From: Myxococcota bacterium
GTDB taxonomy: Bacteria; Myxococcota_A; UBA9160; JAFDDA01
Direction of reading: 5' to 3'
NCBI GenBank assembly: GCA_965228475.1
Contig: OZ245817.1
Location: forward strand, 1,856,001-1,920,000
DNA: 64,000 bases
Both the position numbers and the translations under genes were made by a program. Shown piece by piece: positions 2,056-18,562 of the stretch (position 1 is the first letter of the stretch; the number at the start of each line of letters is the position of its first letter). The notes below the pieces were generated by a model, which was given only the letters and a program-made list of their open reading frames with translations, did no database searches and was not told the DNA's origin.

Positions 2056-2422
2056 TCCCGGGAGGGGCGGACCGGCCTCTTCACGAAGTGCGCGCGGGCC
2101 TTCGAGTTCGCTGACCCCGTAGCCCGCGGGTCGACGCTTCTTCTTCTTCTTCGAGTCACAGAATGGCGACGAACGTGTGAGCGGCGTGGTGCACGCTGCT
2201 CGTGCATCGGATTCGTGCGCAACGGTGCCGGAACCCGCACCGAAAGCGAACGTTTCGTGCGCGATGGCGACACCCGACCGTTGCCGGCGTCACGGAACGA
2301 AGACGAATCCGTGAAGGAAGCAACAACACGGCTTCCGCCTCGCGTTCCGCGCGCGCACCCAAGATATGATCCGGCCGCTTCTTCGGAGCACGATGTTCCG
2401 CTCGTCGAGGAGAAAGCCCTGC

Positions 2423-3229
2423 ATGATGTGCTGCGGTCCCTCTGGGAGTCTGCCGTTCCTGCGATCGTTCGTCGCGCTCGTCCTGGCCGTCGCTTGGGTC
2501 GGGGTCGCGGGCTCCGCCGCGGGCGAGGCTCGCGTCGACGATTTCCGCGTGAAGGTCGAGAAGTGGGTCGAGACACGGCAGATCCTGTCGGAGGAGAAGT
2601 CCGATTGGGACGCCGAGCGCGAGCTGCTTCGCGCTTCGCGAGACCTGCTCCGTCAGCAGAAGAAAGCGCTGGCGGAAGAGGTCGCGACGCTCGAAGCGAC
2701 GATCACGGAAGCCGACCAGGAGCGCACGGATCTGTTGCTCGACCGCGGGGAGTACAAGCGGTCCACCACCGTCATGGCGGAGCGTCTGCTCGGCCTCGAG
2801 CAGGACGTGAAGGACCTCGTTCCGTGGCTCCCTGAGCCGTTGCAGGCCAAGCTCGAGCCGCTGCTGGCCCAGATCCCCGAAGACCCCGAGGCGAGTCGCG
2901 CGAGCCTCGGCCAGCGGCTGATCAACGTGCTCGGCGTGATCCTCCAGTCCGAGAAGTTCGACTCGACCGCCACGCTGAGCGGAGAGACCCGGGCCGTCCG
3001 GGAGGGCGACACGCAGAAGGTCCAGGTCCGAACGCTCTACTGGGGGCTCGGCCAGGCCGTCTACGTCGACTCCCAGGGCGAGGTGGCCGGGATCGGGAAG
3101 CCCGGTGCGGAGGGCTGGACCTTCGCGGACGAGCCGGGCCTCGCCGACGACGCCGAGCTCCTGCTCGACATCTACGAGGGCAACGTCGACGTGATTCGCT
3201 TCGTCGACGTGCCGGTGACCGTCCGATGA
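2423..3229 (+). CDS. DUF3450-family periplasmic coiled-coil protein (TtpB-like, TonB2-system associated)
   Basis: GAGGAG SD before ATG 2423 (alternative start 2366); signal peptide, long coiled coil, C-terminal YWGLGQAVY...W..; first gene before a long ExbB. Confidence 0.75.
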   Translation: MMCCGPSGSLPFLRSFVALVLAVAWVGVAGSAAGEARVDDFRVKVEKWVETRQILSEEKSDWDAERELLRASRDLLRQQKKALAEEVATLEATITEADQERTDLLLDRGEYKRSTTVMAERLLGLEQDVKDLVPWLPEPLQAKLEPLLAQIPEDPEASRASLGQRLINVLGVILQSEKFDSTATLSGETRAVREGDTQKVQVRTLYWGLGQAVYVDSQGEVAGIGKPGAEGWTFADEPGLADDAELLLDIYEGNVDVIRFVDVPVTVR

Positions 3230-4653
3230 GGCGGCCGGGAAGCGTGGCTCTGGGGTTCCGCCTGCTCGCCTTGCTCGCCGTCGGCAGTCTGCTCGCGCTG
3301 GCGCCCGAGGCGTCGGCCCAGAAGTTCAACGCGGCGCAGGCGGACGTCGACCGGAAACTCGAAGGTTCGCTCCGCGAGCTGGGCGACCTCCGGGCCAAGA
3401 TCGTGAAGGAGAAGGTCCCGCTCTCGAAGAGCGTCTCGCAGCTCGAGAACGAGGTGATCGAGCTGCGCCACGAGCGCGACCGGCTGCTCAAGATCCGCGA
3501 CAGCCGGACCCTCGATCTATCGTCGCTGCGCAAGAGCGTCGAGTCCCTGGCCGACCAGGAAGACTTCATCAACAGCCGGCTCAACGAGTTCGTGCGGGAT
3601 TTCGAGGGTCGCCTCGACATCAGCGAACTGCCGCGGTTCGAAGGCTTGACCGGCCCGGCGAAGCTCGCCGAGAGCAGCGTCAACCTCGACGGCGTGGAGA
3701 AACGCGAGACCCAGCTCGCGGTCGTGAAGGCGGCCCTGCGGCGCCTGCGGGATCAGCTCGGGGGCCACGTCTACGAGGGCGAGGCCCTGAGCCCGGACGG
3801 AGTCCTCACGAAGGGCCACTTCGTCGCGGTCGGGCCGACGGTCTTCTACGTGAGCGACGACGGCGAAGTCAGCGGGCTGGTCGAGAGCCAGCTCAACGCG
3901 GCGGATCCGGTCGTCATCGCGCTGCCGGACAGCGAGGAGGGTCTCCGCAAGATCGTCAGCGGCTCGGCCGGCTCGCTTCCGCTCGACCCCACGCTCGGCA
4001 AGGCGCTGAAGACGGAGAAGGCGGCCAAGGGGCTGCTCGACTACGTCGACGACGGCGGCGTCGTCGGCTACGTGATCCTCGGCCTCGGGCTCGCGGCGCT
4101 GGCGCTGACGCTCTTCAAGGTCTTCGAGATCCTGGGCTTCGTCGTCGCCGAGCCGCGCCAGGTGGACGGGATCCTCGAGGACCTCGAGCGCGGTGACCGT
4201 GCCGCCGCCGGAAACCGCGCGGACCGCGTGGCGGGAATCTCCGGCGAGCTGCTTGCGACCGGCGTCGAGCACGCAGGGGAGAAGCGGGGCGTTCTCGAGG
4301 AGCTGCTCTTCGAGAAGATTCTCATGGCGCGCCCGATGCTCGAGCGCTTCCTCCCGTTCCTGGCGATCACGGCCGCCGCCGCGCCGCTGCTCGGGCTGCT
4401 CGGGACCGTGATCGGCATGATCAAGACCTTCCAGCTCATCACGATCTTCGGAACGGGGGATGCGAAGAGTCTCTCCTCGGGAATCTCCGAGGCGCTCGTG
4501 ACCACGGCGCTCGGTCTGATCGTCGCCATCCCGACGCTGATCCTGCACGGCGCCCTGACCCGGATGGCGAAGCACAAGCTCGGGATGCTCGAGCAGCTCT
4601 CGGTGGCCTTCGTGAACGGTGTCTCCGGGCTGCGCCGGCAGGCCGAGCGCTAG
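3226..4653 (+). CDS. MotA/TolQ/ExbB proton-channel protein with periplasmic N-terminal coiled-coil extension (TtpC-like)
   Basis: Signal peptide; APLLGLLGTVIGMIKTF and GISEALVTTALGL motifs; ATGA overlap with upstream gene. Confidence 0.9.
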   Translation: MRRPGSVALGFRLLALLAVGSLLALAPEASAQKFNAAQADVDRKLEGSLRELGDLRAKIVKEKVPLSKSVSQLENEVIELRHERDRLLKIRDSRTLDLSSLRKSVESLADQEDFINSRLNEFVRDFEGRLDISELPRFEGLTGPAKLAESSVNLDGVEKRETQLAVVKAALRRLRDQLGGHVYEGEALSPDGVLTKGHFVAVGPTVFYVSDDGEVSGLVESQLNAADPVVIALPDSEEGLRKIVSGSAGSLPLDPTLGKALKTEKAAKGLLDYVDDGGVVGYVILGLGLAALALTLFKVFEILGFVVAEPRQVDGILEDLERGDRAAAGNRADRVAGISGELLATGVEHAGEKRGVLEELLFEKILMARPMLERFLPFLAITAAAAPLLGLLGTVIGMIKTFQLITIFGTGDAKSLSSGISEALVTTALGLIVAIPTLILHGALTRMAKHKLGMLEQLSVAFVNGVSGLRRQAER

Positions 4654-4661
4654 GCCGCGGC

Positions 4662-5243
4662 GTGACGAGGATCTTCGAGATCTGGCAGAGCGGAGGGTGG
4701 GTGATGATCCCGCTGTTCCTGCTCGCGGTCCTGCTCTACGGGCAGGCCTTCCAGCTGCTGATGTACATCCGGCGCGCACGCATCGGCGGCGAGGACGAGG
4801 CGCACTGGGGCCGCTGGGTGCGGGATCCGGAGGAAGCCGAGGGCCGGGTCGCCGAGATCATCCGTTACACCCAGGACGACGTCACGACGTCCGGCCAGAT
4901 CCGCCGGCGCTTCGACGAGGTGCGTCTCGCGATCCTGGCGCTCGTGGACCGGCGCACGCGGTTCCTCGCGAGTCTCGTGGCCGCGGCTCCGCTGATGGGA
5001 CTGCTCGGCACCGTGCTCGGGATGCTGCGCACCTTCTACAGCATCGCGACCGGCGGTGGCGGGGAGACGGCGGGCAGCGTCGCCTCCGGCATCTCCGAGG
5101 CGCTCGTCACGACCCAGACCGGGCTCACGATCGCGCTGCCCGGCCTGTTCATGGTCATGCTCATCCAGCGCCGCCGGCACGACCTCGAGGCGAAGCTCTC
5201 CCGCCTCGAGAGCCTGACGCTCAGCACCATGAGGGTCGAGTAG
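4662..5243 (+). CDS. exbB: MotA/TolQ/ExbB family protein
   Basis: APLMGLLGTVLGMLRTF, GISEALVTTQTGL. Confidence 0.9.
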   Translation: MTRIFEIWQSGGWVMIPLFLLAVLLYGQAFQLLMYIRRARIGGEDEAHWGRWVRDPEEAEGRVAEIIRYTQDDVTTSGQIRRRFDEVRLAILALVDRRTRFLASLVAAAPLMGLLGTVLGMLRTFYSIATGGGGETAGSVASGISEALVTTQTGLTIALPGLFMVMLIQRRRHDLEAKLSRLESLTLSTMRVE

Positions 5244-5245
5244 CC

Positions 5246-5647
5246 GTGCCCCGGCGAAGCATCCTCGAGGAGGACGACCCGCTCGAGATCGATCTCTCTC
5301 CGATGATCGACTGCATCTTCATCCTGTTGATCTTCTTCATCGTCGCGACGGTGTTCGTGGAGGAGCAGGGGCTGCAGGTCGCCAAGCCCGACGCGTCGGC
5401 CGCGGCGTCGACCGAAGAGACCGAGAACGTCGTCCTCCAGATCACCGCCGAGAACAAGATCCTGTTCGACGGCAAGGAGATCACGCTGGCCGACGTCGCG
5501 AACCGGGTGCGGGCCGGCGTGCGGGAGCCGGACACGCCGGTCGTCCTGCGGGCGGACGAGAAGTCGGATCACGGCCTGTTCGTGGCGGTCTGGGACGCGG
5601 CGCGGCGGGGTGGGGCGGGGCAGCTCAGCTTCACCACGACGAACTGA
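5246..5647 (+). CDS. exbD: Biopolymer transport protein ExbD (copy 1)
   Basis: GTG 5246; [19 protein letters not shown] transmembrane segment with conserved Asp; VVLRADEK. Confidence 0.9.
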   Translation: MPRRSILEEDDPLEIDLSPMIDCIFILLIFFIVATVFVEEQGLQVAKPDASAAASTEETENVVLQITAENKILFDGKEITLADVANRVRAGVREPDTPVVLRADEKSDHGLFVAVWDAARRGGAGQLSFTTTN

Positions 5648-5656
5648 GCGGGGAAG

Positions 5657-6061
5657 ATGGCGAACCGCAGCATCCTCGACGAACGCGAAGAGCCGCTCGA
5701 GATCAACCTCGCGCCGATGATCGACTGCGTCTTCATCCTGTTGATCTTCTTCATCGTCACGACGGTCTTCGTCGAGGCGCCGGGCATCGAGATCCTGAAG
5801 CCCGATGCGACGGTGGACGTCGACCTCGAGAAGAACAGCATCCTGATCGGGATCACCGAGGACAACCAGGTGATCTACGGCGGCCGCGTCCTCGGCATCG
5901 CGGGGGTCGGCGCCCGCGTGAAGGCGCTGCTCAATCGCGAAGACCTGCCCGTGATCATCCAGGCCGATTCCCGCGCGGACCACGGCGTCTTCTCCGACGT
6001 CTGGAGCGAGGTCAAGAACGCCGGCGCCAAGAAGATCAGCATCTCGACGCGGAACGACTGA
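5657..6061 (+). CDS. exbD: Biopolymer transport protein ExbD (copy 2)
   Basis: [27 protein letters not shown]. Confidence 0.9.
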
Positions 6062-6714
6062 TGTCGAAGCGAACCTTCAAGCTCCCCGACGCCGATTCCG
6101 AGCTGCGCGGCAGCCTGCTGGCCGGTGGCGCCTTCGCGCTCGGCCTCTTCATCCTGATGGCCCTGGCGCAGATGATGGGCGACGTCGGCAAGCCGGACGA
6201 GAGCCTCGTCGACGACCTCCAGGCCTTCCAGGTCCCGGAGATGGAGACCATCGAGGAGGAAGAGGAGCCGCCGCCCGAAGAGGAGGAGCCGCCGGAGCTC
6301 GAGGAGGAGCTCCCCGAGCTCTCCCTCGATCAGCTCGACATCACGCTGAACCCCGGCACCGGGGGCTCGCTCATGGGCGACTTCGGCATGCCCGACTTCA
6401 AGACGCTGAAGGAGATGAGCACCTCCTTCCTCGACTTCTCCCAGCTCGATCAGAACCCGCGGCCCATCGGCGTCTTCGGCTTCAACTTCCCGAGGCGCCT
6501 GCTCAAGGAGCCGGCCAACGGCCGGATCGTCCTGCTCATCAAGCTGAGCTCCGAGGGCAAGGTCCTCGACGTGGAACTCAGCTCCTCGAATCTCCCGCGC
6601 TTCAACGACTTCGTGATGAAGGAAGTGCGGGGTTGGAAGTTCACGCCGCCCACCCAGGACGGGAAGCCCGTGAACGCCGTCGCGCGGCTCCCCATCCCGA
6701 TCCGGGTCCGATAG
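6061..6714 (+). CDS. tonB: Energy transducer TonB
   Basis: N-terminal TM, Glu/Pro-rich linker EEEEEPPPEEEEPP, TonB_C domain (FP...G.IVL...G.V...WKFTPP...GKPV). Confidence 0.9.
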   Translation: MSKRTFKLPDADSELRGSLLAGGAFALGLFILMALAQMMGDVGKPDESLVDDLQAFQVPEMETIEEEEEPPPEEEEPPELEEELPELSLDQLDITLNPGTGGSLMGDFGMPDFKTLKEMSTSFLDFSQLDQNPRPIGVFGFNFPRRLLKEPANGRIVLLIKLSSEGKVLDVELSSSNLPRFNDFVMKEVRGWKFTPPTQDGKPVNAVARLPIPIRVR

Positions 6715-6744
6715 CGGGCCCGGCTCTCGAACCGCAGGAACACC

Positions 6745-8112
6745 ATGAAGCGTCTTCCCATCCTCACGTTCGTACTCGCTGCCGCCCTCGGCGTGGCACC
6801 CGTGGCCCTCGGGCAGGCGCGCCCGTGGCAGGGCGCCTCCGTCATCGACGACCCCGAATGGCAGGCGCGCTTTCTCGGGAGCTACGGATTCCTCTCCGGG
6901 GCGGAGCCGGACATCCTCGAGGACGAAGTCGAGCTCCTGCGCGAAGTGATCGAGCTGATGAAGACGGACCGCGCGGCGGCGGCGAAGCGGCTCGCCAAGG
7001 ACATCGGCCCCGACAGCAGCGCCGCGATCGATTTCGTTCTCGCGAACCTCTACTTCCAGAACGAGGCCCTCGACGACGCGGCCAAGTACTACCGCAGCGC
7101 CATCGAGAAGTTCCCGGACTACCGCCGCGCCCACAAGAACCTCGGCCTCCTGCTCGTGCAGCAGGGGGACTTCGCCGCGGCGCTCGCCCACATCTCGAGC
7201 GCCGTTGAACTCGGCGATCGGGACGGCCGCAACTACGGCCTCATGGGGTACGCCTACATCAACCAGGAGAACTACCTGGCGGCCGAGCAGGCCTACCGGA
7301 ACGCGATCCTCCAGGACCCGAAGACCAAGGATTGGCAGGTCGGGCTCGCCCGCTGCCTGCTCCAGATGGAGCGCTACAAGGAAGCCGTCTCCCTCTTCGA
7401 CAAGCTCCTGGCCGAGAACCCGAGCGACCCGACCTACTGGATGCTCCAGGCAAACGCCTATCTCGGGCTCGAACGGCCCCAGGCCGCGGCGGTGAACCTC
7501 GAGGCCGTGCGCATGATGGGGCGGGCGCAGACGAGCAGCCTCATCCTGCTCGGGGACATCTACATGACCCTCGGCGTTCCCGAGCTCGCCCGCAGCGCCT
7601 ACCTCGAGGTGATCGAGAAGGATGCGAAGGGGGCGCAGTTCAAGACGGCGTACCGGGCCTCGGACCTGTTGATCCGGACACGCTCCTTCGACGACGCAGC
7701 GACGATCCTCGCCTCCATCGACCGCCGCTACCAGGGCAAGCTCAGCGACGAGCAGGAGCTCGAGGTCCTGACGCTGAAGGCGAAGGTCGCTCGGGGGAAG
7801 GGCAACGAGAAGAAAGCCGCGCGAATCCTCGAGTCGATCGTGAAGCGGGACGGCACGCGCGGGGACGCGCTCCTCGAGCTCGCCACGTACTACCGCACGC
7901 AGGGGAACGTCGAGAAGGCCTTCTTCCTGCTCGAGCGCGCCGAGAACCTCGAGGACTTCGAGTACCAGGCGCTCCTGCACCACGCCCAGTTCAGCGTCGG
8001 CGAGAAGGACTACGCCAAGGCGGCCGAGGTGCTCCGCCGGGCGCTGCAGATCAAGACCGAGCCGCGCGTCGAGCGGTTCCTCGCCCGCGTCGAGAGCGCG
8101 GCCGGGCGCTGA
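6745..8112 (+). CDS. Periplasmic tetratricopeptide repeat protein (TtpD-like)
   Basis: Signal peptide and multiple TPR-like repeats (AAKYYRSAIEKFP.YRRAHKNLG); follows tonB. Confidence 0.85.
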   Translation: MKRLPILTFVLAAALGVAPVALGQARPWQGASVIDDPEWQARFLGSYGFLSGAEPDILEDEVELLREVIELMKTDRAAAAKRLAKDIGPDSSAAIDFVLANLYFQNEALDDAAKYYRSAIEKFPDYRRAHKNLGLLLVQQGDFAAALAHISSAVELGDRDGRNYGLMGYAYINQENYLAAEQAYRNAILQDPKTKDWQVGLARCLLQMERYKEAVSLFDKLLAENPSDPTYWMLQANAYLGLERPQAAAVNLEAVRMMGRAQTSSLILLGDIYMTLGVPELARSAYLEVIEKDAKGAQFKTAYRASDLLIRTRSFDDAATILASIDRRYQGKLSDEQELEVLTLKAKVARGKGNEKKAARILESIVKRDGTRGDALLELATYYRTQGNVEKAFFLLERAENLEDFEYQALLHHAQFSVGEKDYAKAAEVLRRALQIKTEPRVERFLARVESAAGR

Positions 8113-8143
8113 GCGCAGACGCGACGACGAAGACGCGGATCGC

Positions 8144-11100
8144 ATGAAGCTGCTGCATCGGACATGGGCTCGAAGCGGAACGGAGCGCCGGCAACCCGGC
8201 TGGCGCCTCTTGGCGGCGCTGCTCGGCCTTCTCCTGATGGCGGGGCCGAGCGTCGCGCGGGCCGAGGAAGAGACCGGCCGGGAAGGCGTTCTCGGCGGGC
8301 AGGTCTTCGACGGAGACAGCGGGGATCCGGTCCCGGGCGTGACGGTCATCCTCACCTGGCCCGAGCCCGAGGACGGCAGCGAAGCCCGGCAGGCGATCGA
8401 GACGACCGATGCCGACGGTGCCTACCGCTTCGGCTCGGTCCCCGCCGGCTACTACAGCGTGACCTTCTCGAAGACCGGCTACCGCGCCGCCAAGATGACC
8501 CGCTTCGAGGTGCTCGCCGGGGAGGTGAACCGGGCCGACTTCCCGCTCCAGCCCGCGCCCGTCGACACCGCGGACTCCGTACTCGAGCTCGAGGCCTTCG
8601 TCGTGGAGGCGGAGGTCGTCGAGGACATCCTGAACGAGCTCGAGCTGCGCATGGACTCGGACCAGCTCCTCAACGTGATGAGCGCCGAGGACTTCTCGAA
8701 GTTCGCCGCGAGCGACGTCGCCGACGCACTCAAACGGGTCTCGGGCGTCAACGTCGTCGAGGGCCAGTTCGCGATCATCCGGGGTCTCGACGATCGCTAC
8801 AACTCGACCCTCTACAACGGCGCGCCCGTCCCGAGCCCGGACCCGGACCGGCAATCCGTCCAGCTCGACCTCTTCCCCTCGGACATCGTCAGCAACCTGA
8901 TCATCTCCAAGACCTTCGCCCCGGACCTGCCGAGCAACTCCTCGGGCGGCGCCATCAACATCCTCACCCACGACTACCCGGAGCGGTTCGAGTTCAAGCT
9001 CAGCGGCGGCACGGGCTGGAACGACAACGCCGTCCCGACCTTCCTCGACTTCGTGAAGGAGTCGGCCACCGGCGTCGACAAATCCGGCCTCAGCGACACG
9101 ATCGAGAGCGACTACGGCGGCCTCCTCGGCGGCCGCTACGAGATCTTCGGCCGGGAGGTTCGGCTGAAGCTCGTCGGGAATCGCGAGACGGACTACGAGA
9201 CGGAGGAGGGGATGTTCGAGGAGCGGGAGCCGGGCGACCCTCCGGACAATCCCGATCCCTTTGGAAACTGCGCCGTGATTCCGAGATTTGTCTTCGGCGT
9301 CGGATTCGTGTGCGACGTCCCGCTTGTCGTCTTCCCATCGGACCTGAACAATGGCCTCCTAGGCCTCACAGGTGGCCGGTTCGAGCAGCAGAAGAGTCGT
9401 CGCGAGGTTCAGCTGACCGCCTACGGCGGCGCGGGCTTCGATCTCGACCGAGAGGGTGCCCACCAGATCGACGGCTCCGTTTTCTACACGCGAAAGAAAG
9501 AGGGGTCAGTCGAGCTTCGGAGCAACGGGTTCCTTCCGGGGGTCGACCTTTCGGAGCTTGACCCGACCGACATCAACAACAGCGGGGATTTCGATGATTT
9601 TGTCGCACTCCCCAAGTCCTGGGTCGCGCGGTCCATCCGGCAGTCCGTCCTCGACACCGCAGCGGATGGTCCGGTCTTCTTCACGAGTTTCTCTGAGAGC
9701 CGGGCATTCGAGCGAGAACGTGATCTTCGCGTCTATCAGGCGAACGGCGACCACGACTTCGGGCGACTCCTGGAAGGGCTTCGCGCGAGCTGGGCGTGGA
9801 ACCGCTCTGAGACGAACCAGAACGAATCTGTCTACGGATTGCGATACTTTGCGGAACCTCCGAACGCTGCCGACGTCGGTGTGACCGACCCTCCGACCGA
9901 CCCGACGCTATATCCCCTCGAATTCGACGATGTGCTCGGTCCGGGCCCCCGCTGTCAAAGCGAAACGGGCATCGAATCCACGCAGAACTGTTTCGTCGCG
10001 AACAATGGAATCCTCTTCAGCGAGACCTCGATCTTCGAAGAGCAGGACTTCTTTCGGTTCGATGGAGAGTTCGAACGGGGGCTGTTCAGCTGGCTGACCT
10101 TCTCGTTGAAGGGCGGCGCTTGGTGGGAGGAAGCCGAGCGAGACGTGCAGGCGGGCTTCCTCGAGAACGTTTCCGTCGACGGCGAGAGTAACCAGTTTGC
10201 AATCATTGCCCCGACCGAGGAGGCGCTCGGCGGGGCACCCTTCGAAGACTGTGACGATGGGAACTGCCTAGATCGCGATGAGGACGATGTGTTCCAGTTC
10301 GTCCGGAGCAACACGAACCGCTCTGAACGCGACATCTTCGCTTGGCATCTGAACGGCAAGGCGTCCTTCTTTGACCGGCTCGATCTGCTGGCGGGGCTCC
10401 GTCGGGAGCGGATCGAGATCCGTTCCTTCAACAATCCCTTCGGGGATGGCAGTGGGGCGCCCACGTTCGGGATTCCGCGGATATTCCCGAGTCGATTCAC
10501 GCTATTCGATCGTCTCGACAATCCTGATCGCCCAAACGAGGCCGACCCCCTGAACCCCTTCAACGAGGTTGACCCAATGGATCCGCGGGTGACGGACCCG
10601 GATTTCGCGTTCAATGACCAACTTCTCGGCATCCAGGTTCCCATGGTCCCCTGTCCCACTGCCGATCGGCCCGATCGGATGTGCTCCGATCTCCGGCGCG
10701 GAGATCTCGAAGGTCTGCTCAACGGCGTGATCGATGAGGCATTCATCCTGCCTTCCTACGGTGTTGCCCTTCGGCCCCTCGAGGGTCTCACGTTCCGTGG
10801 CGCCTACTCGCGAACGGTCGCGAGACCCTCGTTTCGTGAGCTCGGATACTACGTAACGGTCGAGACTGGGACCGATGACCGAACGGTCGGGAACCCGCAG
10901 GTAAAGCTCTCGCCGGTCGAGAGCTGGGACCTTCGTGGCGAGTACGTCTGGGGAGACCTTGGGGATATCGTTGCAGTCAGCCTCTTCAAGAAGAACATCG
11001 ACGAACCGATCGAGCGGATCGTCGTTCGTGATCCCCTGGTCCTGACAGGCGATGCAGAGTTTCGAACGTTCTTCAACAATCCCAATACTGCGTCTCTGCG

Positions 11101-11740
11101 GGGCTATGAGATCGAGGCGCGGAAGAGCCTTGGGTTCCTATCGTTGAGTTTCCTGGATCGGTTCGACATCAAGCGACCCCGGTGGCTGAAGGGCTTCGAC
11201 TTCCTCCAGTACCTCTCGGTTGGCGGCAACTTCACGAAGATCGACGCCACCGTGAAACGGACGGATGGTGCGGTTCGTGGGGCGGCCGCCTATTTCGCAA
11301 ATGTGCCATCAGGGACCTTCGAGTTCGAAAACATCGAACCTGAGCGAAGGCTTTTCAACCAGCCGGAGTGGATCCTGAATGCGGATATCAGCTTCGACCA
11401 CCCCGATTGGGGCACGAAGCTTACTCTGGCGTACTTCGAGATCAGCGACATTCTCGATGCGGCTGGCACCGCGTCCTTGAACAACTCGGGCGAGCCGTTC
11501 TCCTTCACCTTGGATCAGTACAAGGACTCGTTCCATCAGCTGGACTTCATCGCGAGCCAGAAGGCGCGGATCGAGTTCCTGCGGGCCGATCTGACGGTGA
11601 AGCTCAGCATCAAGAACCTGACGGACAGCACGCGCCGTCTGATCTACGACCCCAACCAGCTCGTCGACCGGATCGCCGAGCGCGAGTACAAGAAGGGCCG
11701 CGACTACTCGCTCTCGTTCTCGTGGAAGTGGGAGTGGTAG
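8144..11740 (+). CDS. TonB-dependent outer-membrane receptor with N-terminal carboxypeptidase-regulatory-like domain
   Basis: Signal peptide; G.V.D..SG.PVPGVTV; plug DVADALKRVSGV...IIRGLDDRYN; YSRTVARPSFREL, GNPQVK; aromatic C-terminal strand YSLSFSWKWEW. Confidence 0.92.
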   Translation: MKLLHRTWARSGTERRQPGWRLLAALLGLLLMAGPSVARAEEETGREGVLGGQVFDGDSGDPVPGVTVILTWPEPEDGSEARQAIETTDADGAYRFGSVPAGYYSVTFSKTGYRAAKMTRFEVLAGEVNRADFPLQPAPVDTADSVLELEAFVVEAEVVEDILNELELRMDSDQLLNVMSAEDFSKFAASDVADALKRVSGVNVVEGQFAIIRGLDDRYNSTLYNGAPVPSPDPDRQSVQLDLFPSDIVSNLIISKTFAPDLPSNSSGGAINILTHDYPERFEFKLSGGTGWNDNAVPTFLDFVKESATGVDKSGLSDTIESDYGGLLGGRYEIFGREVRLKLVGNRETDYETEEGMFEEREPGDPPDNPDPFGNCAVIPRFVFGVGFVCDVPLVVFPSDLNNGLLGLTGGRFEQQKSRREVQLTAYGGAGFDLDREGAHQIDGSVFYTRKKEGSVELRSNGFLPGVDLSELDPTDINNSGDFDDFVALPKSWVARSIRQSVLDTAADGPVFFTSFSESRAFERERDLRVYQANGDHDFGRLLEGLRASWAWNRSETNQNESVYGLRYFAEPPNAADVGVTDPPTDPTLYPLEFDDVLGPGPRCQSETGIESTQNCFVANNGILFSETSIFEEQDFFRFDGEFERGLFSWLTFSLKGGAWWEEAERDVQAGFLENVSVDGESNQFAIIAPTEEALGGAPFEDCDDGNCLDRDEDDVFQFVRSNTNRSERDIFAWHLNGKASFFDRLDLLAGLRRERIEIRSFNNPFGDGSGAPTFGIPRIFPSRFTLFDRLDNPDRPNEADPLNPFNEVDPMDPRVTDPDFAFNDQLLGIQVPMVPCPTADRPDRMCSDLRRGDLEGLLNGVIDEAFILPSYGVALRPLEGLTFRGAYSRTVARPSFRELGYYVTVETGTDDRTVGNPQVKLSPVESWDLRGEYVWGDLGDIVAVSLFKKNIDEPIERIVVRDPLVLTGDAEFRTFFNNPNTASLRGYEIEARKSLGFLSLSFLDRFDIKRPRWLKGFDFLQYLSVGGNFTKIDATVKRTDGAVRGAAAYFANVPSGTFEFENIEPERRLFNQPEWILNADISFDHPDWGTKLTLAYFEISDILDAAGTASLNNSGEPFSFTLDQYKDSFHQLDFIASQKARIEFLRADLTVKLSIKNLTDSTRRLIYDPNQLVDRIAEREYKKGRDYSLSFSWKWEW

Positions 11741-11753
11741 GGCGCGCGGCGTT

Positions 11754-13397
11754 CTAGTTGACCCGGATCGGGACGGGGAGCCGGGCCCGCGCCGCCACGC
11801 GCTCTCCTCCGCGCGTGGGCGGTGTGAAGCGCCAGCCCTCGACCGCGTCGACGATGTAGCGGTCGAAGTCCGGCAGGTCCGAGGCTTCGACCTCAGCGTG
11901 GACGACGTCGCCCTCGGGACTCAGGTCGATCAGCAGGACGACCCTGCCGTGGGCGCGCTTGCGCAGGAGGCGGCGCGGGAACTCGAACCCGCCAGGCTCG
12001 ATCGGCCGAGGCACGGCGTCGAGCTCGCTCCAATGGGCGGGTGTCGCGGGGTCGGGCTCGGAGGCTGCGAGCTCGACGGCCGTGGGTTCAGGGTCCGGCG
12101 CAGGGCGCGTTGCCTCGGCGACGGCCGAGGCGATGGCGTCGCGCCGCTCGGTAAGGCGGGTCTCGAAGGCATCCAGACGCGCGCCATCGCACGGGCCGAG
12201 GCCACAGAAGAGATCGTGGAAGACCGAGGCGGCGACCTTGGTGGCCGACGTGGAGCCGTCGACGACGAGGCTCACCACCGCAATCCGGGGCGCCTCGGCG
12301 GGAGCGACGCCGATGAACCAGCGGTAGCGGCCCGTGGGGTTCGTGCCGCTGAGCGTGCCCGTCTTTCCCGAGACGCGGACGCCTCCGAGGAGCGGTTCGC
12401 CCCGGGCATCGTGGAAGGCGCTTCGCGCCGTGCCGTGCTCGGTGACGTTGACGAGGACCTCTCGCAGCTCGGTGGCGACCTCGGCGGTCCAGACGGGCTG
12501 GGGGGCGGCGCGCTCCGGCGGCTGCATCGGCCGGCCTTCCGCATCCTTCACCCCGGCGATCCAGTAGGGCTCGACGAGTTCGCCCCGCGCGAGCAGCGAG
12601 GCGAGGCGGGCTGCGGACAGCGGGCTGAGGAAGGACCCCGCCAGGCCTGAGCCGAGGCGCCCGAGCGCGAGCGGTCCGTCCAGCGGCTCGAGCCGGCCTG
12701 CGCGGTGCATGGCGCCTGGGACTTCGAGCAGGCCGATCGCCCGGATGGCGCGGATGAGCGCCGTTTCACCGAGGTCCCGGACCGCGAGCCGCGCGAAGCA
12801 CTGGTTGTTCGAGGTGGCCATCGCCTGGGCGAAGGAGACGGAGCGGCCTCCTTCTGCCGGTGGTTCGAGCTGGCTCGTGTAGAGCTCGTAGGGGCTCCCG
12901 TCGTAGCGGCACGTTCGTGCCGTGGCGGTCGGAGCCTCCTGGAGCACGGCGGCTGCGGTCACGACCTTCATCAGGGATGCGGTGGGGTAGGTGCCCGTCG
13001 CGGGGAAGCGATCCGGGTCGGTCGAGACATAGGCGAGCAGGGCGCCGCTCCCCGGATCCATCACCACCACGTGGCCCAGGTCGACGCCGGACCGGATCAG
13101 CGTGTCGCGAATGCGCCGCTCGAGCGAAAGGTCGAGCGTGTACTCGACCTCGTAGTAGGCGTCCGTTTCCGCGCCGGGTGCCTCGGGCTCCCAGGGCAAT
13201 CGCTCGACCCAAGGCAGGCTCGCCCCGGTCCCGAGTGCCGCTTCCGGCTCGGGTGCGAGGCCGCGAACTCCAGGCGGGAGGAGCGTCGCCCAGGCGGGGC
13301 TCGTCGAAGTCGGTGTCTCGGCACGCGCGGCCGTACCGCTGCCCATGTGAAGAACGAGCAGCGCCAGCGACGCGGCGAGGGCCGGAGCGGGGCGCAT
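11754..13397 (-). CDS. Penicillin-binding transpeptidase-domain protein fused to a C-terminal TonB_C domain
   Basis: YTLDLSLE, VVVMDPGSGALLA, SxxK (SLMK), SxN (SNN), KTG (SGKTGT), WFIGVAP; Pro-rich linker, then a TonB_C domain. Confidence 0.85.
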   Translation of the reverse strand: MRPAPALAASLALLVLHMGSGTAARAETPTSTSPAWATLLPPGVRGLAPEPEAALGTGASLPWVERLPWEPEAPGAETDAYYEVEYTLDLSLERRIRDTLIRSGVDLGHVVVMDPGSGALLAYVSTDPDRFPATGTYPTASLMKVVTAAAVLQEAPTATARTCRYDGSPYELYTSQLEPPAEGGRSVSFAQAMATSNNQCFARLAVRDLGETALIRAIRAIGLLEVPGAMHRAGRLEPLDGPLALGRLGSGLAGSFLSPLSAARLASLLARGELVEPYWIAGVKDAEGRPMQPPERAAPQPVWTAEVATELREVLVNVTEHGTARSAFHDARGEPLLGGVRVSGKTGTLSGTNPTGRYRWFIGVAPAEAPRIAVVSLVVDGSTSATKVAASVFHDLFCGLGPCDGARLDAFETRLTERRDAIASAVAEATRPAPDPEPTAVELAASEPDPATPAHWSELDAVPRPIEPGGFEFPRRLLRKRAHGRVVLLIDLSPEGDVVHAEVEASDLPDFDRYIVDAVEGWRFTPPTRGGERVAARARLPVPIRVN

Positions 13398-13714
13398 GGG
13401 CCAGAAGATATCGCCTGATTTCGCGGAGTTGGCGGGTCTCGCCCGTCCTTCGGGCAGGAATCCGCGACGGCGGCGTTGCGATTTCGTGAGGGTCGTGACG
13501 ATCCCGTGAGCCCCTGCAACACGGGGGCAGGTCCCGCCACTTCAACCTCGAAAAGTCGTCACCCAAGCGTGCCCGCCGGATGGCCGGAGATCGTGGGGGA
13601 TGGCGGCGGATCGGAAGACCCGTCCGAGGCGTGTTCTTAATCTGCGCACCGTTCGGGCCGGAAGAGTCCGGTCGGGACGCAACAGCAGGAACCCAACAGG
13701 GAGCTACCCCAATC

Positions 13715-15403
13715 ATGAAACTGAAATTGTTTGCAGCTCTGGTGCTCGCGGCCGCCGGATTCGCCGGCAACGCGCAGGCGCAGACGGTCGTTGCCGCGGA
13801 CGTCACGTCCGACACGACCTGGAGCGGCGTGATCGTGCTCGACACGGTCATCTTCGTTCGCGACGGCGCGACCCTGACCATCCTCCCCGGTACGATCGTT
13901 CGCGGTCAGCCCCGCTCGGGCCCCGTGGTCGTCGGTTCGACGGTGGGCTCGCCCGGCGCGCTCGTGGTGACCCAGACCGGCCGCATCGTCGCCGATGCGG
14001 ACGAAGCCAACCCGATCATCTTCACGACCGCGGCCGTCGACAACGACAACGACGGCGTGGCCGACGACGATGACGCCAACAACTTCGAGGACTCCTGGGT
14101 CGCCGGCGACACCTTCCTCGACGACACGCCGGCCACGGCGCCCCTCGCTCCGCTGAACACGGCGGGTGAGTCCAACGTCGCCCTCTGGGGTGGCGTGGTG
14201 CTGCTCGGCAACGCGCCGACGAACCTCGCCAACGAGTGCGGCACGGGCTACGGCACCTGCGTGATCGAGGGCCTGACGGTTCCGGGCTTCCCGGCGGCCT
14301 TCGCGACCTACGGTGGCGTGGACCCGAACGACAGCTCGGGCATCCTCGAGTACGTCTCGATCCGCCACGCGGGCGACGAGATCGGCAACGGCAACGAGCT
14401 CAACGGCCTCACCCTCGGTGGCGTCGGCCAGGGCACCAAGATCGCCTTCGTCGAGATCTACGCGAACTTCGACGACGGCTTCGAGTGGTTCGGCGGCACG
14501 GCCTCCGGCTCGAACCTGCACGTCCTGTTCGTGGGCGACGACTCGCTCGACGCCGACCAGGGCTACACGGGCGTCAACCAGTTCGTCTTCGTCGTCATGG
14601 GCTTCTTCGACGAGAACGACGACGACAGCTACGGCTCGCGCTCCGGTGACAAGGCCGGCGAGCTCGACGGCGACGACTGGCGCCCGGACGACCCGGCGCT
14701 GTTCGACAACGTGAACGTGCGCATCAATCAGCCGCTCACCGCGATCGACTCGACGCCCTGGCCGCTCTCGCAGTTCCAGTTCCACAACGTGACGGTCATC
14801 GGCTCGACGCCGGACGCCGGGCAGGAATTCACGCCCAGCTTCCCGGCTTCGACCAACGACGGCATCCAGTGGCGCAACGGTGGCGCGGGCTACGTGTTCC
14901 ACTCCATCGTCGTGAACACCGGCGCCGAGGGCGGGATCGAGATCGATTCCGACATCGGTGACGGTTCGCCGGGCTTCGACACCACGAACAACGTGGCGAA
15001 CGGCCTGGTGGCGCTGGTCTGCTCGACCCTCGACGACGGTGCTGCGCTCTCGGCGGACGAGTCGACGGCGGTGGCCAACGGCAACGCGCTCGCCGACACG
15101 CTCGGTGGCACGCCGCCGGCCTCGAACAACGTGGTCAACAGCCCGCTGTTCCCCGGCCTCGTGAACGAGGACCAGACCTTCGACCCGACCGGTGATGCGG
15201 CCGGCAAGCTCGTGAGCACGCTCAAGAGCTCGCCGATCAACCCGCGGCCGAACTTCGGCCTCACGGGAATCATCGGTTGCCCGACGATCGACAACAAGCT
15301 GGTGACCCCGGTGACGTACCGCGGCGCGTTCGATCGCACCGCCCCGCGCCTCTGGACCACCGGTTGGACGGTCCTGAGCCTCTCCGGCCTGATCGCAGAC
15401 TGA
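13715..15403 (+). CDS. Secreted acidic parallel-beta-helix-like protein of the TBDR-associated family
   Basis: Signal peptide ending AQA; LTILPGT, WGGVVLLGNAP, YGG.DPNDSSG.LEYVSIRHAG, ELNGLTLGGVGQGT, DDGFEWFGGT, C-terminal YRGAF...WTTGWT. Confidence 0.75.
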   Translation: MKLKLFAALVLAAAGFAGNAQAQTVVAADVTSDTTWSGVIVLDTVIFVRDGATLTILPGTIVRGQPRSGPVVVGSTVGSPGALVVTQTGRIVADADEANPIIFTTAAVDNDNDGVADDDDANNFEDSWVAGDTFLDDTPATAPLAPLNTAGESNVALWGGVVLLGNAPTNLANECGTGYGTCVIEGLTVPGFPAAFATYGGVDPNDSSGILEYVSIRHAGDEIGNGNELNGLTLGGVGQGTKIAFVEIYANFDDGFEWFGGTASGSNLHVLFVGDDSLDADQGYTGVNQFVFVVMGFFDENDDDSYGSRSGDKAGELDGDDWRPDDPALFDNVNVRINQPLTAIDSTPWPLSQFQFHNVTVIGSTPDAGQEFTPSFPASTNDGIQWRNGGAGYVFHSIVVNTGAEGGIEIDSDIGDGSPGFDTTNNVANGLVALVCSTLDDGAALSADESTAVANGNALADTLGGTPPASNNVVNSPLFPGLVNEDQTFDPTGDAAGKLVSTLKSSPINPRPNFGLTGIIGCPTIDNKLVTPVTYRGAFDRTAPRLWTTGWTVLSLSGLIAD

Positions 15404-15416
15404 GAACGTCACTCCC

Positions 15417-15452
15417 TTCCGGCCCGCCTGCCTGGCGGTGGGCGGGCCGGAA
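15417..15452 (+). other. Intergenic GC-rich hairpin (mRNA stabiliser or partial terminator)
   Basis: TTCCGGCCCGCC ... GGCGGGCCGGAA 12-bp inverted repeat without a U-tract. Confidence 0.5.
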
Positions 15453-15485
15453 ACTTCTCCCTGAGGAAGGAAAAGGATTTCGATC

Positions 15486-16271
15486 ATGAAGAAACTGATT
15501 CTGTTGGCATCCATCATTGCGCTCGCGCCGGCCGGCTCCGCCAAGGCGGCGATGATCGCGGGCTTCGATCACAACTCCTACGTCGCAGGCTTCTTGTCGA
15601 CGGACGGCGCGACCCTCGTCGACACGCTCGACGCGCGCTACTCGGACTTCGACCCGACCTTCGGTGCGGGCGCGGAAGCCGGCGCCTTCGGCACGCTCTA
15701 CATGGACGGCTCGTTCGGCTCCACGGCGACGCCGCTCGACGGCTCGGACCCCTACACCTCGACCTCGGGCAGCCTTTCCTCGAACGTGACGGCTCCGGTG
15801 AACGGTGAGCCGGCCGGCGACGTGCCCTTCGGCTCGACGACGGTGCTGACTTCCGAGGGCGTGGCTCCGTTCGGTTCCGAGATCAAGATGGTGGCCAACG
15901 CGGCGACCAGCGTCGTCTACTCGGCGGACCTGTCCTCGATCGCCTCGGTCGGTGACAACTGGAACCTGAGCTTCGCGGGCCAGACGCCGATCGGTACGGC
16001 CACGGTCGGCATCGAGTTCTCGACGGACGGCGCGAACTACGTGGTGGTCGGTGACGAGACCCTGAACACCGTGGACTCGACCTTCAACGTCGTCCTCGGC
16101 GGTGGCCCGTCGGCCCAGGCGTTCATCCGCCTGACCTTCGACGCCAACCAGCCCTTCATCGACAACCTGGCGATCTTCGCCGACGTGTCGGCCGTGCCGG
16201 AGCCGGCGAGCCTCGCGCTCGTCGCCAGCGGCCTGGTCGCTCTCGCGACGGTCCGCCGCCGCCGCGCCTAG
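15486..16271 (+). CDS. PEP-CTERM sorting-domain surface protein
   Basis: Signal peptide; C-terminal VPEPASLALVASGLVALATVRRRRA. Confidence 0.9.
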   Translation: MKKLILLASIIALAPAGSAKAAMIAGFDHNSYVAGFLSTDGATLVDTLDARYSDFDPTFGAGAEAGAFGTLYMDGSFGSTATPLDGSDPYTSTSGSLSSNVTAPVNGEPAGDVPFGSTTVLTSEGVAPFGSEIKMVANAATSVVYSADLSSIASVGDNWNLSFAGQTPIGTATVGIEFSTDGANYVVVGDETLNTVDSTFNVVLGGGPSAQAFIRLTFDANQPFIDNLAIFADVSAVPEPASLALVASGLVALATVRRRRA

Positions 16272-16306
16272 CGGGAGCGGTTCGGTTCGAATCAGTAGCC
16301 AGAATC

Positions 16307-16342
16307 GGGACCGCCACCTTCGGGTGGCGGTCCCAACCTTTT
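16307..16342 (+). terminator. Rho-independent terminator-like hairpin
   Basis: GGGACCGCCACC-TTCG-GGTGGCGGTCCC perfect 12-bp stem with UUCG loop, followed by AACCTTTT. Confidence 0.7.
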
Positions 16343-16359
16343 CGAGAGGTCTCTTCTCC

Positions 16360-17214
16360 ATGCGCATCGCAGCCGTCGCCACCGCTCTTCTCCTGCTCGC
16401 CTGTCTCGTCTCGCCGCCGTTCGCATCCGCAGACGCGGGGCGCATGACGAGTGACCTTCCCGAGCACGACGCCTCGGATCCCGGGGCCGCGCCGGTGACG
16501 GCCGACAATCTCGAGCAGGCCGCGCGCTTCTGGCCCTTCCGCGTGGCCGTCCGGGAGGCTTGGAAGGCCCCGGGCACGGCCAAGACGATTCGCCCGCAGT
16601 TCCCGGGCGTTCTGGTCCGGGTGGAGCCCGAAGGGATCGCCCGGATCGACTTCGGCCGCGATGGCGTCCACCGGGTTCCCGTCGCCGCGACCGACCTTCT
16701 CGAGCGAGCGAACGCGATCCGCCTGGGCCGTGAGCCGAAGACCGCGCCGAACTTCCTGTACATGGTGGCACCGCGCCTGCTCGATTCGCGGCCCGGTTCT
16801 CTCGGATCCTTCGACTATGCCGAGGTGGCCGCGCACGAGCGCTATCTGCTCGTCTTCGCCGACGTCACGAAGCCCGGGTTCGCGGACCTCGCCGCCTCGC
16901 TACGAACGGTTGCGGGGCGGCAGGATCTTCTGCCCGTCGTTTTTCCGCAGGGCCGCGTCGAGGACGTCGTCGTTCGCGACCGCCTGCGCGAGCTCGAGTT
17001 CGAAGCCGCCTTCGTCTACGACCACCTCTCGGAGGGCTACAGCAAGGCGCTGCTCGAGAGCGCGACGCCGATGCCGGCGGTGATGGTCGTCGACCAGGAG
17101 GGGCGCGCCGAGTTCGGAGAGCCGTGGTCCGCGCGAACGGAGCAGGCGTTCATCGGGCGGCTCGCTGGCGCGGCTACTCCGTCGCGCGCGGGGTCATCGT
17201 CACGATCTCGATGA
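16360..17214 (+). CDS. Secreted hypothetical protein, possible CxxC-less thioredoxin-like C-terminal domain
   Basis: Signal peptide (ASA); RYLLVF...LLPVVFP...PAVMVVDQEGR pattern. Confidence 0.55.
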   Translation: MRIAAVATALLLLACLVSPPFASADAGRMTSDLPEHDASDPGAAPVTADNLEQAARFWPFRVAVREAWKAPGTAKTIRPQFPGVLVRVEPEGIARIDFGRDGVHRVPVAATDLLERANAIRLGREPKTAPNFLYMVAPRLLDSRPGSLGSFDYAEVAAHERYLLVFADVTKPGFADLAASLRTVAGRQDLLPVVFPQGRVEDVVVRDRLRELEFEAAFVYDHLSEGYSKALLESATPMPAVMVVDQEGRAEFGEPWSARTEQAFIGRLAGAATPSRAGSSSRSR

Positions 17215-17806
17215 TCCCGTTGTCCTCTTCGACGGAGATCTGCCACGGGCGGAAGACGGGCCGCGCCTCGGCATGCGCCTCGAAGCGGCGGAAGATGCCG
17301 AGGGGCATTCCGCGGAAGACGGCCACGGCGCGATCGGTGGGCGCCTCCTCCGCGGCGAAGAAGGTCCCCATCCACTCGAAGACGAAAGCCGGTTCGGTCG
17401 TGACCCAGGGGGAGTCCGGGTTCGTGAGCCGGTTCTTCGAGTACTGCCGCTGGAAGATGGCGGCCGCGAGCCAGTAGGCCTCGCTCGCCTCGGGGCTCTC
17501 GGGGTGGAGCGTGCGGATCAGGGTCAGCAGGCGATAGGGCTCTTCGAGGCGCCGCTCGGCGACGCCGGCGCGCGCGCGCGCGAGCAGGAGGGCCGGGCTC
17601 GCGAGGAGTTCTTCCCCGCCGGGGAGTTCTTCCTCGCTCGTCGCACCGAGCAGGCCGAACTTTCGGTCGATCAGGTCGAGGCGCCGTTCGACTTCGGCCA
17701 GGCGTTCGTCGAGCGTGGTGTCCGAGGCCGCGGGTGCCGCGGAGGTCGAGAACGGTAGGGCCACCGTGCCGAGCCAGGCGGAGGCCAGCAGAACGCTCTT
17801 GCGCAT
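17174..17806 (-). CDS. Secreted coiled-coil/TPR-like hypothetical protein
   Basis: Signal peptide; LDERLAEVERRLDLIDRK; LIRTLHPESPEASEAYWLAA TPR-like helix pair. Confidence 0.6.
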   Translation of the reverse strand: MRKSVLLASAWLGTVALPFSTSAAPAASDTTLDERLAEVERRLDLIDRKFGLLGATSEEELPGGEELLASPALLLARARAGVAERRLEEPYRLLTLIRTLHPESPEASEAYWLAAAIFQRQYSKNRLTNPDSPWVTTEPAFVFEWMGTFFAAEEAPTDRAVAVFRGMPLGIFRRFEAHAEARPVFRPWQISVEEDNGIIEIVTMTPRATE

Positions 17807-17840
17807 GGTCGATCCTCGGGTGGGTGGGGCGGCTCGCGGC

Positions 17841-18458: not shown

Positions 18459-18562
18459 ACGGGTCTCTCCCGCCGGCAGTGTATCGACGGAACGGAGTCG
18501 GCCCGGTTGCAGCCGTGCGACGATGCGGTGAAGGAATCGCGTTCTTCGGGGCGCAGCGCGCC

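Follow-up and report, generated by a model that had tools for sequence, protein, structure and literature searches.

A TonB-dependent receptor paired across phyla with a predicted beta-helix protein, in a myxobacterial gene cluster with a Ton motor and a PBP-TonB_C fusion

Genes of the locus

The 64,000-nucleotide stretch analyzed here, referred to as the window (contig OZ245817.1 of assembly GCA_965228475.1, positions 1,856,001 to 1,920,000, from a bacterium of the Myxococcota), carries a gene cluster in which a Ton motor operon and a large TonB-dependent receptor are accompanied by a secreted, predicted beta-helix protein, a PEP-CTERM protein, a penicillin-binding protein (PBP) transpeptidase domain fused to a TonB_C domain (PBP-TonB_C), and three secreted proteins of unnamed families labeled ORF296, ORF210 and up1084 (Table 1). 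The two-gene core of this cluster is the receptor, which has an N-terminal domain of the CarboxypepD_reg type, and the beta-helix protein. The motor, the receptor and the PEP-CTERM signal are of known kinds; what is new is the pairing across phyla of this receptor with a protein of the Beta_helix_4 family whose anchors are exchangeable, along with the myxobacterial accessory set and the PBP-TonB_C family.

Because the G+C content of the window is about 70%, genes were picked by family matches rather than by the length of the open reading frames (ORFs), and the proteins of the window were matched to Pfam and NCBIfam. All of the genes named in the initial annotation of this stretch were present, with family matches far beyond chance. 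The PBP-TonB_C gene, however, lies on the minus strand, convergent with the receptor gene across a gap of 13 bp and divergent from the beta-helix gene, the start of the beta-helix gene is most likely 13715 and not 13580, giving the signal peptide MKLKLFAALVLAAAGFAGNAQA, and up1084 falls outside the range originally given. Position 2423, where the DUF3450 gene had been taken to begin, is an alternative in-frame ATG. The eight genes from DUF3450 to the receptor are separated by intergenic gaps of -4 to 31 bp, and a scan of the window DNA for promoters and terminators returned nothing exceeding chance.

Table 1. Members of the cluster, their window coordinates and the family matches that identify them
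Feature	Coordinates	Strand	Matches and remarks
up1084, secreted 323-aa protein, unnamed family	1084-2055	+	Outside the range of the initial annotation; optional member
DUF3450 (TtpB-like), first motor gene	2366-3229	+	PF11932 E 2.2e-21, 76.7 bits (cut-off 32.6)
TtpC-like long ExbB, 475 aa	3226-4653	+	PF01618 at residues 338-456, E 1.7e-27
ExbB, 193 aa	4662-5243	+	PF01618 E 2.8e-23
ExbD copy 1	5243-5647	+	PF02472 E 1.2e-27; NCBIfam ExbD/TolR models below cut-offs
ExbD copy 2	5657-6061	+	PF02472 E 3.2e-26
TonB, 217 aa	6061-6714	+	PF03544 E 7e-9; TIGR01352 33.7 bits (cut-off 27.1)
TtpD-like tetratricopeptide repeat (TPR) protein, 455 aa, signal peptide	6745-8112	+	Many TPR families, e.g. TPR_19 E 1e-32
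TonB-dependent receptor, 1198 aa	8144-11740	+	PF13620 (CarboxypepD_reg), PF07715 (Plug), PF00593 (barrel)
PBP transpeptidase-TonB_C fusion, 547 aa	11754-13397	-	PF00905 E 5e-27, PF03544 E 3e-9
Secreted acidic right-handed beta-helix protein (predicted fold), 562 aa	13715-15403	+	Beta_helix_4 label PF28492
PEP-CTERM protein, 261 aa	15486-16271	+	PF07589 25.2 (cut-off 20.7), TIGR02595 23.5 (cut-off 16)
ORF296, secreted	16324-17214	+	Signal-like N-terminus; no Pfam/NCBIfam family
ORF210, secreted, unnamed family	17174-17806	-	Signal-like N-terminus; no Pfam/NCBIfam family

The receptor and beta-helix pair and its anchors

The beta-helix protein was used to query one genome per GTDB species, which gave 35 loci (numbered with the prefix L), and all of the window proteins were run against these loci by tblastn. 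The CarboxypepD_reg-type receptor gene adjoined the beta-helix gene in 32 of the 35; L007 and L016 had no receptor and L031 had no upstream sequence. Besides Myxococcota, the survey reached 16 distant loci whose record titles assign them to the Ignavibacteria, Cytophagia, Balneolaceae, Holophagae/Acanthopleuribacter, KSB1, Zixibacteria, GN15, Chitinivibrionales and Planctomycetota. Six of these 16 were scanned with Pfam, and only the receptor/beta-helix pair was common to all six. A typical polysaccharide-utilization locus was considered and rejected, as glycoside hydrolase, polysaccharide lyase, sulfatase and SusD genes were found neither in the window cluster nor in the six scanned loci.

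A second survey covered 193 genomes of the same order, 101 of them high-quality. The beta-helix gene was found in 66 (41 of the high-quality genomes) and not in a same-genus genome that is 89% complete. We inspected the loci of 49 of these 66 genomes, a set that overlaps with L001-L019 and is not independent of them. Receptor and beta-helix genes were neighbors in 43 of the 49. Among the six others, the motor lies between the beta-helix gene and the receptor in G060; L117, L118 and L119 begin in the same order as G060, and the fetched stretch ends within the motor; L110 has no upstream sequence, and L103 has no receptor. ORF296 was the most constant accessory gene, present in 47 of the 49 loci, and a PEP-CTERM signal, whether separate, fused or recognized by motif, was present in 48. 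The membership of the cluster was kept while gene order and strand were repeatedly rearranged. The gene-neighborhood comparison proposed with the initial annotation thus found the components co-occurring in other genomes.

The ways in which the beta-helix protein is tethered differed among lineages. Downstream of the beta-helix gene, 36 of the 49 same-order loci have a separate PEP-CTERM gene, and two more (L117 and L119) have one by motif alone. In nine loci the beta-helix ORF itself ends in PVPEPG, a hydrophobic stretch and RRRR, and in a tenth the contig stops inside PVPEP; the loci with the fused tail are exactly those that lack a separate PEP-CTERM gene. The beta-helix proteins of L020 and L021 carry the sorting tail of the type IX secretion system (T9SS; Por_Secre_tail), that of L033 starts with a dockerin module (Dockerin_1), and in L007 and L103 an ORF210-type lipoprotein forms an in-frame fusion on the N-terminal side of the beta-helix domain. 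The most informative result of the comparison was that every lineage appears to attach the beta-helix to the cell surface by a device of its own, and from this swapping of anchors we infer that the beta-helix acts at the cell surface, where in this genome the PEP-CTERM protein and/or ORF210 probably hold it.

The PEP-CTERM protein of the window has a signal peptide and a PEP-CTERM domain, while all of the named PEP-CTERM subfamilies scored below their cut-offs; its homologues carry AGWDFSQ after the signal peptide. Two exosortase genes (PF09721) lie elsewhere in the genome, which has 40 PEP-CTERM matches. The PEP-CTERM gene of the cluster occurs in two copies in L082, L084, L085, L086 and L091 (also in L083, L092, L096 and L097), the copies being arranged in tandem behind the beta-helix gene or lying elsewhere in the same locus.

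One might object that these genes are neighbors by descent only and form no functional unit. Their distribution is indeed patchy (66 of 193 genomes, with none found in the same-genus genome) and several members are optional. However, membership was kept despite the shuffling of order and strand, the receptor/beta-helix pair was kept across phyla, and fusions join the beta-helix to the PEP-CTERM tail, the beta-helix to ORF210, and the PBP domain to a TonB_C of the cluster type. We therefore consider it highly improbable that the genes are mere neighbors.

The receptor consists of the CarboxypepD_reg N-terminal domain, a TonB-box-like motif, the Plug and the barrel, and ends in an aromatic C-terminus (...SWKWEW). 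The motif, L-[DE]-L-E-x-F-V-V-E, follows directly after the N-terminal domain and is conserved in 27 aligned relatives, and it reads as a TonB box. The best NCBIfam model was TonB-Xanth-Caul (TIGR01782; 190.4 bits, under the cut-off of 310), a subfamily associated with carbohydrate uptake. PF25183 (OMP_b-brl_4) had no match anywhere in the genome, and SusD families were not found by Pfam among the 17 window proteins scanned. The receptor gene is also lower in G+C (0.625) and in G+C at third codon positions (GC3; 0.81) than its operon neighbors (GC3 0.93-0.95), and nowhere in the window does G+C fall lower than in the 10-12 kb bin (0.613). Amino-acid composition could explain this, as could a separate origin for the receptor gene.

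The beta-helix protein has an isoelectric point (pI) of 4.05 and is encoded by a single gene copy in the genome. The precomputed label PF28492, which the Atlas names Beta_helix_4 ("pectate-lyase like beta helix"), was found on all 120 of the homologue clusters listed, including the window's own cluster (99% identity). An AlphaFold2 (AF2) model built with 33 sequences had a pLDDT of 88.9 and a pTM of 0.91. Foldseek E-values for this model were weak; a VIA search of 48,161 chains gave Z scores of 17-20.6 to many right-handed beta-helices, in agreement with the beta-helix-like character first noticed from the sequence. The enzymes matched included the alginate lyase 6kfn (Z 20.3), Pel9A (Z 17.7 with 310 residues aligned), mannuronan epimerases and phage tailspike depolymerases, and NosD, a non-enzyme that works with metal centers, matched at Z 18.5. 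On the strength of the model the 562-aa protein is a predicted right-handed beta-helix whose fold we regard as settled, though not its activity. In an alignment across phyla E185, E228, D253, D254, D275 and D279 were invariant and R387 was nearly so, and these acidic residues would fit a metal-assisted active or binding site.

Some relatives contain the beta-helix in larger proteins. At L016, the second locus of one relative and one without a receptor nearby, a 1399-aa ORF (7412-11608) ends in the beta-helix domain, and the N-terminal part of this ORF has weak matrixin (E 0.0014) and GEVED matches. In the Cytophagia, GN15 and Zixibacteria metagenome-assembled genomes of L021, L022, L024, L026 and L030, a beta-helix unit of about 430 aa is repeated two to three times per ORF, in ORFs of about 990 to more than 1400 aa.

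The acidic beta-helix might depolymerize nothing and act like a hemophore, capturing a small ligand or a metal and handing this nutrient to the receptor, as in the HasA/HasR and TbpB/TbpA systems. The pI, the invariant Asp/Glu clusters and the Asp-rich loops would suit this, as would the match to NosD and the absence of glycoside hydrolase, lyase and sulfatase genes with the pair in the six distant loci scanned. Against it, the receptor did not resemble those for such ligands: the siderophore, heme and transferrin receptor models scored far below their cut-offs (TIGR01783 17 bits against 223.5, TIGR01785 25.6 against 316.85, and TIGR01786 42.4 against 323.75), as did the B12 receptor models of NCBIfam, and the best model was the TonB-Xanth-Caul one. 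No riboswitch, cobalamin riboswitches included, was matched by Rfam within window positions 1-20000, and a 19-mer Fur box consensus allowing at most 3 mismatches had no match in the window, although this consensus is that of E. coli/Vibrio, as given in PMC6957404, and may not be that of the host. The initial annotation had named a receptor that is a known siderophore or B12 transporter as a finding that would refute it; this was not borne out, and we consider small-ligand capture without depolymerization unlikely.

A second possibility, put forward initially for the beta-helix, is that the receptor exports or displays this protein and/or the PEP-CTERM protein, moving them across the outer membrane with the power of the Ton motor. 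The beta-helix proteins of Myxococcota have only a Sec signal together with a PEP-CTERM tail or partner, and we know of no outer-membrane route established for PEP-CTERM proteins. In addition, the receptor has the N-terminal architecture (CarboxypepD_reg, Plug, barrel) of Oar of M. xanthus, and this TonB-dependent transporter (TBDT), along with ExbB/ExbD/TonB, is needed for the secretion of PopC (PMC6434023). The same paper gives 28% of all TBDTs as sharing the domain architecture of Oar, which hence is no indicator of secretion (PMC6434023). The genome has about 40 PEP-CTERM matches and only 6 receptors. Furthermore, the relatives in Ignavibacteria and Cytophagia keep the pair even though their beta-helix carries a T9SS tail and so has an export route of its own; export of the beta-helix is therefore unlikely to be the general job of the receptor, and we hold an Oar/PopC-like role for this locus to be unlikely.

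The Ton motor, the PBP-TonB_C fusion and the accessory proteins

The motor comprises seven genes (DUF3450, long ExbB, ExbB, two ExbD, TonB and TPR) and is a known TonB2-type operon (TtpB-TtpC-ExbB-2xExbD-TonB-TtpD). The features of gene content and order that define TonB2/TonB3 are present: the DUF3450 gene is first, the long MotA/ExbB protein precedes ExbB-ExbD-TonB, and the TPR gene is last. The Vibrio TonB2/3 architecture recognized in the initial annotation was thus confirmed in the order of DUF3450, long ExbB and TPR, as set against PMC6957404. Iron regulation through an upstream Fur box is a further feature of these systems, and the 19-mer consensus, as described above, had no match in the window. 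The long ExbB consists of a periplasmic N-terminal part followed by the MotA/ExbB channel domain, and the first 4 bp of its gene are shared with the end of the DUF3450 gene. Both ExbD copies are retained in related loci (61-78% identity), and by family matches and reading of the sequence the 217-aa TonB has an N-terminal anchor, an acidic linker and the TonB_C domain.

The 5.0-Mb genome has one DUF3450 gene, 6 receptors, 5 ExbD-family genes and 6 TonB_C domains. Since this is the sole DUF3450-type motor in a genome with 6 receptors, the motor may be dedicated to this receptor, though the same-order loci do not show this. A Ton motor operon adjoins the receptor/beta-helix module in 28 of the 49; 20 of these operons are of the TtpC type and 8 are an ExbB-ExbB-ExbD-ExbD set of another kind, and 4 loci have no motor within at least 10 kb upstream, the remainder having too little flanking sequence. 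In L003, L004, L010, L013, L081, L082, L085, L088, L097, L099 and L114, all from other families of the order, the module is preceded by the non-TtpC motor (ExbB-like, ExbB, ExbD, ExbD). Ton motors of two kinds have thus come to be combined with the module.

PBP-TonB_C would be a soluble periplasmic protein composed of a class-B-type transpeptidase domain, a Pro-rich linker and a TonB_C domain. By reading, its signal peptide is of the cleavable type, and its TonB_C domain matched TIGR01352 at 40.1 bits (cut-off 27.1). The nearest solved relative of the PBP domain is PBPA of M. tuberculosis (3un7, E 8e-16). In the 120 best related clusters the transpeptidase motifs were nearly always intact (SxxK in 118, SxN as SNN in 120, and KTG in 120), and nearly all of these clusters have PF00905 together with PF03544 under no more specific name than "TonB family protein" or the like. 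Pfam found no membrane anchor and no dimerization or pedestal domain. A TonB-type N-terminal anchor for contact with ExbB/ExbD is likewise absent, the first 400 residues being the PBP domain behind the signal peptide. The TonB_C domain of the fusion is 55% identical to that of the TonB of the cluster, and no other TonB_C of the genome matches it at E<=1e-3.

The fused form was found in 16 genomes including this one. In 11 of them it lies within or beside the cluster genes, at six or more positions, among them between the receptor and the beta-helix gene, upstream of the motor, beside up1084 and, in G013 and G045, between TonB and TPR inside the operon. The other five copies are solitary and lie among unrelated genes. 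An unfused PBP-like paralogue of about 430-480 aa, matching residues ~37-410, occurs in 36 of 41 genomes of the order, and a search for related loci with the PBP fusion as query returned only unfused relatives. In L042-L048 and L058-L061 the unfused paralogue sits among unrelated housekeeping genes, and the only copy found in the window genome with the PBP-fusion query was the fused one. A tree of the TonB_C domains was poorly resolved, so that a single origin of the fusion is neither shown nor excluded. These data suggest a periplasmic enzyme that was recruited to the TonB box of the receptor, and a role in modifying peptidoglycan would fit the transpeptidase domain. The "own peptidoglycan-modifying module" of the initial annotation nevertheless does not describe the cluster in general, as the fusion is an optional member.

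Such a protein also invites a structural reading, in which the motor, the peptidoglycan (through PBP-TonB_C) and a surface adhesin would be linked in a structural or force-transmitting complex comparable to Tol-Pal or Agl-Glt, serving adhesion, motility or the integrity of the outer membrane and not transport. Besides a transpeptidase domain, the operon does hold a motor, TonB, a TPR protein and a coiled-coil protein, a combination that recalls the connection of Tol-Pal, CpoB and PBP1B and the TonB_C-bearing Glt proteins of Myxococcus; both TonB_C domains have weak matches to the AgmX/PglI C-terminal domain (E 1e-4 to 2e-4, below cut-off), and adhesins share the beta-helix fold. However, the outer-membrane part is a complete receptor with a plug and a TonB box, the PBP fusion is missing from most of the 49 loci, and outside Myxococcota the pair occurs without a motor or PBP nearby. 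We regard a structural complex as improbable. A related proposal is that the receptor and the Ton motor form an outer-membrane translocon or holding platform for an exosortase-sorted beta-helix, with PBP-TonB_C fastening the complex to peptidoglycan. If true, this would be a TonB-powered surface-display or force-transmitting machine and would give PEP-CTERM proteins a route through the outer membrane, but we judge it to have little likelihood, and the single physical "machine" of the initial annotation found no support.

The remaining secreted proteins were analyzed for clues to their function. ORF296 had no Pfam, NCBIfam or PDB sequence match, and the Atlas offered a lead only, to Thioredoxin_8 and SH3_3+redoxin clusters (score 0.95, 173 shared features); no conserved Cys pair (CxxC) was found in the alignment of the family. 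It probably consists of a small beta domain and a thioredoxin-like fold without CxxC. ORF210 likewise matched no family in Pfam, NCBIfam or the PDB sequences; 6 of 11 aligned relatives have a lipobox, and most relatives are lipoproteins. The up1084 protein has no Pfam, NCBIfam or PDB sequence match either, and its family numbers 331 representatives at E<=1e-3, with homologues in or beside the cluster at L008, L011, L012, L017, L051, L053, L054, L074, L075, L090 and L108. Its AF2 model (pLDDT 90.6) shows a long-stranded beta-barrel with internal helices, for which the best fold match was the lipovitellin/vitellogenin N-terminal barrel (Z 10.3, rmsd 5.0, 210 aligned); it also resembles small outer-membrane barrels (Z 8-9.5). 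These modeled similarities appear too low to assign a function.

Two further ORFs flank the cluster. One at the 5'-open start of the window (2-940, plus strand) has a weak match to a VWA domain (E 1.4e-5) and is not conserved with the cluster. The other, of 1096 aa (17841-21131, minus strand), has GntR and aminotransferase (MocR-type) domains confined to its first ~390 residues; the Arg/Pro-rich rest resembles high-G+C read-through, and ORFs with thioesterase domains overlap it farther along.

Possible function and comparison with known systems

The reading that we favor, and in which we have about as much confidence as doubt, is that the locus is a TonB-dependent import unit, with a beta-helix anchored on the surface to capture or cleave a polymer outside the cell and with periplasmic helpers to process the cargo. 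The beta-helix would be exported and held at the surface, in this organism probably by the PEP-CTERM protein and/or ORF210, and there it would bind, and perhaps cleave, the polymer, for which an acidic glycan or cell-wall material seems most plausible. The neighboring TonB2-type motor would then drive fragments through the 1198-aa receptor, and ORF296 and the up1084 barrel would receive or process them in the periplasm. In some genomes the PBP transpeptidase domain might in addition dock, through its own TonB_C domain, on the TonB box of the receptor. Gene content, folds, linkage and the swapping of anchors are what we observed; the surface location in this organism, the inward direction, the substrate, the role of the PBP and each contact between proteins are inferred.

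Several observations weigh against this import unit. No substrate-specific enzyme, inner-membrane transporter or regulator was conserved with the core in the window and the six distant loci scanned, and therefore nothing points to the cargo or proves import. The beta-helix is a candidate enzyme on the basis of its modeled fold, and the same fold is common to adhesins (Vag8, pertactin, PfbA) and to NosD. The import unit also leaves the crossing of the outer membrane by the beta-helix in Myxococcota unaccounted for. Only 8 of the 49 beta-helix loci have the PBP fusion, which is solitary in 5 of its 16 genomes; with 41 loci lacking it, the fusion cannot be essential to the function of the core. 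Finally, no RNA run that carries the locus is listed among the sequencing runs. The runs that contain part of it are marine and plastisphere metagenomes, in small shares.

The combination was described initially as one not recognized from earlier work, and we found none like it in the literature. Within open-access text, to which this search was confined, looking for PF28492, the gene combination, a PBP/TonB C-terminal fusion and receptor/beta-helix clusters turned up no paper describing such a system. The locus points to a receptor pairing of a different kind from those described, one that extends across phyla and in which the anchor of the beta-helix is exchanged by lineage, and it provides a bench-testable hypothesis for many "hypothetical" genes in marine and soil metagenomes. 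Several accessory families without annotation are now defined. The PBP-TonB_C family comprises more than 100 protein clusters that join an apparently active transpeptidase domain to TonB_C and were previously unannotated; should the fusion dock on the TonB box, TonB_C would serve to target a periplasmic enzyme. By linking PEP-CTERM sorting directly to one specific receptor, the locus would also open a new approach to exosortase biology.

Among receptors that have a dedicated surface partner, those of Bacteroidota (SusCD) and of a few pathogens are understood best, and the precedents for a bipartite arrangement of receptor and surface partner are SusC/SusD, TbpA/TbpB, HasR/HasA and BtuB/BtuG. 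As in these, the gene of a TonB-dependent barrel lies here beside that of a partner that would be surface-exposed or secreted and capture substrate, and the pairing is likewise kept over long evolutionary distances. Unlike in SusC/SusD, the gene that adjoins the receptor in related loci encodes the beta-helix and not a SusD-like lipoprotein, and unlike SusD, TbpB or HasA the partner is a predicted right-handed beta-helix (Beta_helix_4) whose anchor is exchanged between lineages.

In the Fus system, by which Pectobacterium takes up ferredoxin, the receptor FusA is accompanied by a dedicated TonB-like protein, FusB, and a periplasmic protease, FusC. Both are receptor clusters with a TonB-type protein and a periplasmic enzyme of their own, which in Fus acts on the imported cargo, but here a single polypeptide combines the enzyme, a PBP transpeptidase, with the TonB_C domain and lacks a TonB-type membrane anchor. 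The fusion resembles class B PBPs in its intact SxxK, SxN and KTG transpeptidase domain and differs from them in its C-terminal TonB_C domain, its cleavable-type signal and the lack of an anchor or pedestal by Pfam.

The system of Oar and PopC (PMC6434023) shares with this locus a myxobacterial receptor with a CarboxypepD_reg N-terminal extension and is a precedent for Ton-dependent protein secretion; it differs in that there is no PopC-like cargo here and that beta-helix relatives in other phyla use the T9SS. The closest likeness in gene order is to Vibrio. According to PMC6957404, the TonB2 operon runs ttpB (DUF3450), ttpC, exbB, exbD, tonB and, last, ttpD (TPR), and the TonB3 operon includes a receptor gene. 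This locus similarly begins with DUF3450, continues through a long ExbB-like gene, ExbB, ExbD and TonB to TPR, and, like TonB3, carries a receptor gene in the operon. It has two exbD genes, one more than in Vibrio, the receptor gene comes after the TPR gene and not ahead of the operon, and, compared with the Vibrio operons, the locus adds the beta-helix, PEP-CTERM, ORF296, ORF210, up1084 and PBP-TonB_C genes (PMC6957404).

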